Assembly: GCA_048941015.1 (NCBI GenBank)
Contig: JBHLNZ010000008.1
Coordinates: 1-64,000 of the forward strand
Source of the DNA: Promethearchaeota archaeon
GTDB lineage: Archaea; Asgardarchaeota; Lokiarchaeia; Sigyniarchaeales; SOKP01
Direction of reading: 5' to 3'
DNA: 64,000 nucleotides
In this document: positions 1 through 38,230 of the stretch, piece after piece
How positions within the stretch are numbered: position 1 is the first letter of the stretch
Layout of the letters: each line of letters opens with the position of its first letter
The notes under the pieces: model-generated
The model's database searches: none
What the model saw: only the letters and a program-made list of their open reading frames with translations
Told to the model about the DNA's origin: nothing
Made by a program: the position numbers and the translations under genes

Positions 1-642
1 AGCAATCCCTTTAAAATTACTAAGATAGTTGAAGAAGAATCTATATATGAACCGGAATCTATTTATGAGCCAGAACCAGAACCTACTTATGAGCCAGAAC
101 CAGAACCTATTTATGAGCCAGAACCAGAACCTATTTATGAGCCAGAACCAGAACCTACTTATGAGCCAGAACCAGAACCTATTTATGAGCCAGAACCAGA
201 ACCTACTTATGAGCAAGAACCGGAACCTATTTATGAGCCAGAAGATTCACTTGAAAAGAGAATTGACGCATGGTTAATTCAACTTATAACTTATAGAAAA
301 ATTTATGAGCCAGAACCAGAACCCATTTATGAACCAGAACCAGAACTTACTTATGAGCAAGAACCGGAACCTATTTATGAGCCAGAAGATTCACTTGAAA
401 AGAGAATTAACGCATGGTTAATTCAACTTATAACTTATAGAAAAATCTATGAACCAGAACTAGAACCTACTTATGAAGCAGAATCGGAGCCTGCTCATGA
501 AACAGAGCAGGAAATTACTTATGAACCTGAACCAGAGCCTATGTTTGAACCTGAATCTGAATTAGTATCAAAATCAGAAGATATACTTGAAAAGAGAATT
601 ACTGCGTGGTTAATTCAACTTAAAACTTATAGGAAAGTCTAA
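1..642 (+). CDS. 5'-truncated acidic Glu/Pro/Tyr repeat protein with three copies of the motif LEKRIxAWLIQLxTYRK (not in ORF track)
   Basis: Frame +1 is open from base 1 ([20 protein letters not shown]...) to TAA at 640-642. It reads (I/T)YEPEPEP repeats interrupted by three near-identical helical motifs. Confidence 0.85.
61..444 (+). repeat. Coding tandem repeat: 24-nt units (A[T/C]TTATGAGCCAGAACCAGAACCT) plus a 144-nt duplication (157-300 vs 301-444)
   Basis: Directly visible. Unit lengths are multiples of 3 and there are no unique spacers. Confidence 0.95.
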
Positions 643-37468: not shown

Positions 37469-38230
37469 ATGAAATTGTATAACATCAGTGATAATGGAGA
37501 TTTAACTGAATTAAATCAACTAGATTTTAAGGAAAACGATGTTTATCTTGTTGATGATATTGAAAAAAATACAGTTTATATGTGGGTTGGATTAAATGTT
37601 CCTCAATATAAAAAGGATATTACTGCAGCATGGGCTCGAAGATTAGATAAAGAGAGAGGAAGTTCCTCGAAAATATTGATTATGAAACAGAAAAGAGAAT
37701 ATGGTTCATTTTTAGCCATGATGGAAGATTTGAGAAAAGGTTTAATTCCAGGACATACAGCGGAAAGAAGACCAGAGTTAATATTAGAAAAACCTAAAAA
37801 AGAGATTGAACTTGTCAGTAACCAAGAGAAAAAAGTAGATCAAGTGATTATTTCTGAAAAATCAGAGTTAGAAACACGGATTCTTGCATGGTTGAATCAA
37901 ACTAAAACATACAGAAGATTAGAAACCGAAAAAGCACCTTTAGAAACAGAAGATAGAGAGGAAATTGATTTTGAAACTCAGATTAGAGATGCTGCTTATT
38001 TTCTATCTTTGGATCGCTATACATATGATGAATTATGTTGGATGTTAGCTGAAAAAATTCAAAAAATAAATATGAGAATGCCTTCTATTGAAGATATTAA
38101 AAAGAAAGCCGAGGAAGTATTTAATTCTTCAAGTAGCTATGATGAGTTATGTTGGTTAAATGCGGAAATGGATATATTAATCTTAAAAAAGTATATTGAA
38201 AAGGATAAAAAGCCTTTTGATTTTCTTTAA
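37469..38230 (+). CDS. Asgard gelsolin-domain protein with domain X (1DGelX-like)
   Basis: DVYLVD...VYMWVG gelsolin core; duplicated YDELCW(M/L)xAE helices at the C-terminus. Confidence 0.8.
   Translation: MKLYNISDNGDLTELNQLDFKENDVYLVDDIEKNTVYMWVGLNVPQYKKDITAAWARRLDKERGSSSKILIMKQKREYGSFLAMMEDLRKGLIPGHTAERRPELILEKPKKEIELVSNQEKKVDQVIISEKSELETRILAWLNQTKTYRRLETEKAPLETEDREEIDFETQIRDAAYFLSLDRYTYDELCWMLAEKIQKINMRMPSIEDIKKKAEEVFNSSSSYDELCWLNAEMDILILKKYIEKDKKPFDFL

Follow-up and report, generated by a model that had tools for sequence, protein, structure and literature searches.

A portable tryptophan-centred helix in gelsolin-type and acidic tail proteins of one Lokiarchaeial family looks like a docking motif

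The question raised by this locus is why a short helix that is repeated three times in an acidic, repetitive protein of a Lokiarchaeial genome also occurs in the linker of a gelsolin-type protein encoded on the same contig. The stretch analysed, called the window below, comprises 64,000 nt of contig JBHLNZ010000008.1 (C122 here; positions 1–64,000, starting at contig base 1) and belongs to a 3.59-Mb assembly (GCA_048941015.1, G000 here). The organisms concerned are Promethearchaeota/Lokiarchaeia MAGs of an uncultured family, referred to as f1. A sequence-only reading of the window had noticed three copies of LEKRIxAWLIQLxTYRK in the acidic tail and a fourth in the gelsolin-X linker, 12/17 identical to copy 3, and had proposed a mobile short linear motif that binds actin or a partner of the gelsolin, with the triple array acting as a nucleator or bundler. 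The four copies and their likeness were confirmed in the present study, and the element is named the W-helix after its central tryptophan.

The tail protein is encoded at the extreme left of the window, where frame 1 is open over 1–639 (+) and closes with a TAA stop at 640–642. As indicated by this open frame and by full-length orthologues in sister genomes, the gene (1..639, +) consists of the C-terminal 213 codons, its 5' part having been cut off by the contig end. Full-length relatives have a beta-rich N-domain of about 130 aa, followed by an acidic Pro/Glu/Tyr repeat and then by 0–3 W-helices; about 130 upstream codons are missing here. What is left of the N-domain is its end, SNPFKITKI (1..27, +), which agrees with the conserved domain end -SNPF-I-Q/K (alignment A3) and with KSNPFKITK at this place in the closest relative (G054:C19). 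The sequence-only reading had called for recovery of the missing 5' part, but it was not found anywhere in the assembly, and neither were the N-domain or the acidic repeat on any other of its contigs. The acidic YEPEPEP(I/T) repeat (43..249, +; TRF: 24-bp period, 8.1 copies, 93% matches) specifies an extended, highly negative spacer, and a six-frame scan of the 3.59-Mb assembly detected it only in this gene. Overall the tail contains 27% Glu and 18% Pro and has a net charge of -46; its spacers carry net charges of -27, -12 and -16, and those between the W-helices are 31 and 47 residues long. Tyrosine is strictly periodic within the acidic repeat (43–540, +), in the context E-P-[IT]-Y-E, which recalls the bacterial EPIYA phosphorylation motifs. 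Two further ORFs at this end of the window, 1–216 (-) and 29–277 (+, frame 2), of 72 and 82 aa, are other-frame shadows of the 24-bp repeat and not genes.

The W-helix core occurs at just four places in a six-frame scan of the whole assembly, with per-genome E-values of 2e-9 to 7.5e-8 against a profile built from 26 sequences. Three of these are in the tail gene: copy 1 at 250..300 (+; aa 84–100; 36 bits, E 3.8e-8), copy 2 at 394..444 (+; aa 132–148; 36.5 bits, E 2.7e-8) and copy 3 at 586..636 (+; aa 196–212; 40.1 bits, E 2.0e-9), which ends one residue before the C-terminus. The fourth lies in the linker of the gelsolin-X protein at 37868..37918 (+; aa 134–150; 35.1 bits), inside a predicted helix (aa 124–148, pLDDT ~75). 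The DNA reveals something of their history. Copies 1 and 2 originate from a 144-bp higher-order tandem duplication (159..483, +; 2.3 copies, 94% matches by TRF), the units 157–300 and 301–444 being 96.5% identical, and copy 3 shares 87–88% DNA identity with both. The three tail copies are therefore not three independent events, and the array is partly recent. The gelsolin-X copy has only 60% DNA identity to those of the tail, so its likeness has been maintained at the protein level and does not reflect a recent transfer of DNA.

The protein that carries the fourth copy is a long-form gelsolin-W-X protein of 253 aa (37469..38230, +). Its first 95 residues (37469..37753, +) form a true gelsolin domain, recognised by phmmer against the Loki 2DGel structure 7whg (E 3.9e-11) and modelled with an AF2 pLDDT of about 90; the model matches Thor ProGel 7c2f with Z 13.5 (rmsd 1.6 over 85 residues) and 7whg with Z 12.5. 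Beyond it, a disordered linker leads to the motif-bearing helix, and another disordered stretch to a domain termed X at aa 168–239 (37970..38185, +), which is predicted with very high confidence as four helices formed by two I-x-x-A...Y-D-x-L-C-W-x-x-A-E hairpins (pLDDT 93–96). The segments on either side of the W-helix have pLDDT below 50, and the pTM of the whole model is 0.39. Domain X corresponds to no Pfam family and has no convincing structural relative, the top match (Z 7.3) being under the noise level for helical bundles. DUF2934 (PF11154) was rejected as its identity, at E 0.2 and 11.8 bits against a gathering cut-off of 22, across 11 residues. The villin headpiece (PF02209) gave no Pfam hit at E<=1 and was not among the structural matches to X, searches with helical bundles being insensitive.

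Profile searches found domain X in 130/134 f1 genomes, in 11/19 genomes of sister families and in none of 246 Asgard genomes outside the order. The W-helix is narrower. A profile made from 26 copies (consensus E-x-R-I-x-x-W-L-x-Q-L-K-x-[HY]-R-K; matches score 20–42 bits) detected it in 72/134 f1 genomes in the search within the order, and in a 400-genome sample of the phylum in 69/134 f1 genomes and 1/265 elsewhere, all these tallies being lower bounds since variant helices of some gelsolin-X proteins (W-V-Q-Q, W-F-Q-Q) score below threshold. The sole match outside f1 is weak and partial (E 4e-4) and within chance expectation, and none was seen among the 19 genomes of three sister families. 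Such searches point to an origin of the W-helix within this one Lokiarchaeial family. The window's own assembly also encodes relatives without the W-helix, namely a short Gel-X paralogue of 221 aa (G000:C136:33012-33617, -) and an X-only protein of 102 aa (G000:C58:119213-119461, +). Since X is older and wider, and paralogues without the helix exist, the W-helix is a later addition to a pre-existing module. Two origins within that module were considered and rejected: the W-helix does not derive from an X helix by degeneration (hhalign probability <1%), nor is it a constitutive fifth helix of X, as AF2 leaves it undocked and the fold matches exclude it. Portability extends to X itself: in a protein of 1288 aa (L195:4200-8063, -; G080:C3), in which Pfam detects no family, a large N-terminal region, a coiled coil and a Pro-rich linker are combined with two X domains in tandem at the C-terminal end.

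Altogether, 93 distinct motif-bearing ORFs were sorted by architecture. Most numerous are Gel-W-X proteins (55), to which can be added one Gel-W-W-X protein and one Gel-W protein cut by a contig end, giving 57/93 carriers with a genuine gelsolin domain. Small W-X proteins of 110–143 aa account for 21 and carriers without X ("tail" carriers) for the remaining 15. Domain X lies 15–60 residues downstream of the W-helix in 78/93 carriers (84%), and the W-X unit looks like a cassette. Carriers without X include the N-domain tails with one to three copies, in which a beta N-domain is joined to an acidic repeat, as in the window. In about 10/17 tail carriers, the window's included, the last W-helix lies within four residues of the C-terminus. 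Another carrier without X is an EV-repeat protein. Two further carriers of this group (L133:1298-2632, -; L132:623-1336, +) are made up of K/E-rich repeats of 35 aa, which reach 48% self-identity at that period, and end in a W-helix; a period of 35 residues recalls nebulin-type repeats. One more protein (L127:476-1360, +; G041:C81) has two strongly hydrophobic segments, a polybasic stretch, a tail of EEVEE repeats and a C-terminal W-helix, and is a candidate membrane-anchored carrier. With at least six architectures, disordered acidic flanks and helical periodicity confined to one face, the proposal of a mobile short linear motif was well founded. A lack of enrichment among actin regulators, which would have told against that reading, was not observed: the motif is enriched in the architectures of actin regulators.

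In the family of the window protein the W-helix is facultative. The N-domain is present in single copy in f1, in two genera only (24/41 genomes of g1 and 29/54 of g22), and is absent from the window's assembly as it stands; its orthologues bear 0, 1, 2 or 3 W-helices, and tails with W-helices occur in only some g1 genomes. The domain (e.g., L045:730-1134, alignment A3) belongs to a large family (499 cluster representatives) whose members form tandems of 2–7 copies in long proteins that also contain NHL propellers, GH8, He_PIG, FG-GAP/ASPIC or PhoD. Bacterial members may also be single-domain proteins of about 155 aa, and the 3/3 examined start with a hydrophobic, signal-peptide-like N-terminus, which the Lokiarchaeal form lacks. 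No Pfam family, PDB sequence match or useful protein atlas entry was found for the N-domain. The tail gene and the long gelsolin-X gene lie on a common contig in eight or more genomes from two genera (the window's, G002, G008, G012, G054, G096, G107 and G110), at distances of 13–37 kb (about 52 kb in G096). This arrangement is a conserved regional synteny without adjacency, and not an operon. The gene neighbourhoods themselves are uninformative, with methylases and Fe-S/flavin redox genes and nothing cytoskeletal.

Across 86–88 distinct copies the helix shows no or next to no variation at W0, L+1 and Q+3 and more than 90% conservation at R+8, and in 88 distinct copies E-6, R-4, I-3, L/I+4, K+5 and H/Y+7 are well conserved. 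The period of conservation peaks at 90–100 degrees, as in an alpha-helix (P=0.027 vs shuffles), and AF2 likewise predicts the W-helix to be helical (pLDDT 75–82, with low-confidence linkers around it). Conservation is one-sided, and on the conserved face hydrophobic residues stand beside polar ones, among them Q and R, as would be expected for specific recognition. The hydrophobic moment of the 17-mer is ordinary (0.21; 66–70% of shuffles are as high). In the tail, the W-helix forms a charge island of +2 to +4 amid spacers of net -12 to -27. A mixed, one-sided face, an ordinary moment and a basic island are more easily reconciled with a surface for specific docking than with a membrane anchor or a passive linker. 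The W-helix is real, conserved, modular, lineage-restricted and tightly associated with domain X.

Taken together, these properties suggest that the W-helix is probably a portable docking helix, whatever its receptor may be. It would be a helical short linear motif, a small positive island on long, disordered and mostly acidic tethers, and its various carriers would engage one common receptor. The window protein would be the multivalent version, in which a beta-rich N-domain and an extended acidic Pro/Glu/Tyr spacer present three docking helices, the last of them C-terminal. The receptor could reside in the gelsolin-X module, either in domain X or in the gelsolin domain, in which case the tail protein may gather up to three gelsolin-X or X-family proteins, and the W-helix inside the gelsolin-X and W-X proteins may work as a competitor or a latch, either in cis or head-to-tail. 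A parallel can be drawn with the DAD-DID autoregulation of formins, where a short amphipathic helix with basic residues near the C-terminus binds a helical domain of the same protein; similarly, the W-helix could bind a helical domain in cis and the free copies on other proteins could compete. There is no relationship to DAD-DID in sequence or fold, and cis docking is not confidently predicted by AF2. The whole account, a one-sided docking helix on flexible tethers with a receptor in the gelsolin-X module, is slightly favoured as the best explanation of the data. Its last part, taken separately, is a tentative and rather doubtful assignment, though the likeliest of the receptors considered. 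It is favoured by the position of X just downstream of the helix in most carriers. In the W-X model, AF2 gave no confident docking of W on X (pTM 0.57, linker pLDDT ~65), and the structural matches span residues 31–112 only. W columns covary with X columns no more than with Gel columns (P=0.20; low power), and helices on different proteins of one genome are no more alike than those of different genomes (P=0.40, 0.72; low power). These null results for docking, covariation, co-evolution and neighbourhood, of low power as they are, weaken the case for X as receptor. That the receptor is some other protein altogether is unlikely.

An obvious competitor of a receptor in the gelsolin-X module is actin itself. 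The W-helix would then be a WH2-like actin-binding element, the three-copy array would nucleate or bundle filaments, and the gelsolin-X copy would be the side-binding actin motif that has been postulated for 1DGelX. The C-terminal extension of the Thorarchaeotal 1DGelX protein has indeed been hypothesised to hold an additional actin-binding motif (Akil et al. 2020, PMC7444086), the presence of a gelsolin domain in most carriers sets the W-helix in the context of actin regulators, and the layout is like that of WH2 arrays (PF02205; Spire, Cobl, N-WASP), with a portable short helix, basic residues behind it, a tandem arrangement and Pro-rich disorder. A membrane-anchored carrier would also make sense as a tether between actin and the membrane. 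Unlike WH2, the W-helix has invariant W, Q and R, and its acidic spacers, of variable length at 31 and 47 residues, far exceed those of WH2 arrays. An hmmscan of P0001 and P0002 against Pfam (E<=1) gave no WH2 hit, and the residues behind the Trp in the 88 copies are L-K-x-[HY]-R-K, never L-K-K-[TV], so the analogy to WH2 and Spire drawn by the sequence-only reading fails on the features that define WH2. Its nucleator or bundler did not fare better, since a copy number that varies from 0 to 3 among orthologues, together with the recent duplication of two window copies, argues against a conserved design. The W-helix is moreover confined to one family, whereas nearly every Asgard genome has a conserved Lokiactin. 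The comparison to the Asgard 1DGelX protein (PMC7444086) extends to the single N-terminal gelsolin domain and the helical C-terminal extension that follows it, but to judge by the profile searches X here appears to be a separate four-helix module restricted to the order, and the W-helix an insertion specific to the family, as it was not found in the Thor and sister-family genomes searched. For the assayed Thor protein these genome searches detected neither a W-helix nor a homologue of the X found here, and as X lacks detectable homologues outside the order (0/246), the biochemistry of Thor 1DGelX is not simply transferable. An actin-binding W-helix therefore seems unlikely, as does actin in the role of common receptor. 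In short, the sequence-only reading was right to see a mobile linear motif with an enrichment in proteins of the gelsolin type; its WH2/nucleator mechanism is unsupported.

Two further explanations would place the partner outside the actin system or dispense with it. In one, the W-helix is a MIM1-type ligand that occupies the groove of an MIT-type bundle, either of Vps4 or of a large MIT-like repeat protein, and so links the gelsolin-X and tail proteins to ESCRT/Vps4. MIM1 has the consensus [DE]xxLxxRLxxL[KR], with an Arg that is central to binding (PMC12057046). Five of its six positions are matched by the W-helix (E-6, I-3, L+1, L+4, K+5), which like MIM1 follows acidic disorder and is often C-terminal in the tail carriers, the gelsolin-X and W-X copies being internal or N-terminal, and it is plausible that it docks as a lone helix on a bundle of helices. 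In place of the central Arg the W-helix has its invariant Trp, a departure from the consensus, and the conserved face is longer, reaching +8, with no MIM1 counterpart for Q+3, H/Y+7 and R+8. Both ESCRT-III proteins of the window's assembly (L205:1441-2070, -; L206:1390-2049, -) end in the same scaffold, L-x-x-E-[LI]-x-x-L-[KR], which is MIM1-like with Glu for the canonical Arg; the relaxed pattern is rare, at 0.12 per 1000 aa, and is found in the last 25 aa of 14/2525 long ORFs, the two ESCRT-III proteins included (matched by eye). Among the proteins encoded by the assembly are a Vps4 that has an MIT domain and other MIT-like proteins. One fragment (L199:3-1817, -; G000:C106) belongs to a very large protein, widespread in f1, that reaches 1400–2000 aa in relatives and combines coiled coils with several MIT-like repeats. 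The distribution of this MIT-like repeat protein merely tracks phylogenetic distance, the carriers of the W-helix are not ESCRT-III proteins, X is not MIT-like in sequence or fold, and a MIM1 ligand leaves unexplained why four-fifths of the copies adjoin domain X. The resemblance also emerged post hoc, when about five classes of motif were compared. We consider it improbable that the W-helix is such a ligand, and give an MIT-type domain only a slender chance of being the receptor. Equally improbable is a W-helix with no external receptor at all, acting by self-association (pairing or bundling of copies and of carriers), as a membrane-binding amphipathic helix or as a mere structured element of the linker. 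The hydrophobic stripe (I-3, W0, L+1, L+4, H/Y+7), the presence of several copies in one chain and the undocked helix of the AF2 models would suit it. The invariant polar Q and R on the conserved face and the many carriers with a single terminal copy speak against it, a membrane-amphipathic helix was rejected on a hydrophobic moment no higher than that of shuffles, and a passive linker element is not expected to be conserved at 20–42 bits across unrelated proteins. Self-association in particular is very improbable. Resemblances to the villin headpiece and to the WASP C/A region were set aside, as no tool result supported them.

Neither the W-helix, the X family nor the acidic tail protein is described in the full-text literature searched; published work on Asgard archaea has characterised gelsolin domains and profilins, and no docking motifs. 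The W-helix has the look of a novel plug-in motif for docking that is tied to actin regulators. It could, tentatively, be the first portable helical docking motif of archaea to couple an actin regulator of the gelsolin type to scaffold proteins and to proteins anchored in the membrane, be it by recruitment of gelsolin-X or X proteins, by direct binding of Lokiactin, or as a Trp-centred MIM1 variant that bridges to Vps4/ESCRT. A helix of 17–20 residues that is common to the gelsolin-X protein, the small W-X proteins, a membrane-anchored candidate and multivalent acidic tethers offers a cheap and concrete experimental handle. Its rapid, lineage-specific gain, loss and duplication exemplify, in archaea, a mode of network evolution by linear motifs that is usually regarded as eukaryotic. 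If the docking role holds true, eukaryote-style wiring of the cytoskeleton by short linear motifs would already operate, and evolve quickly, inside the Asgard archaea.
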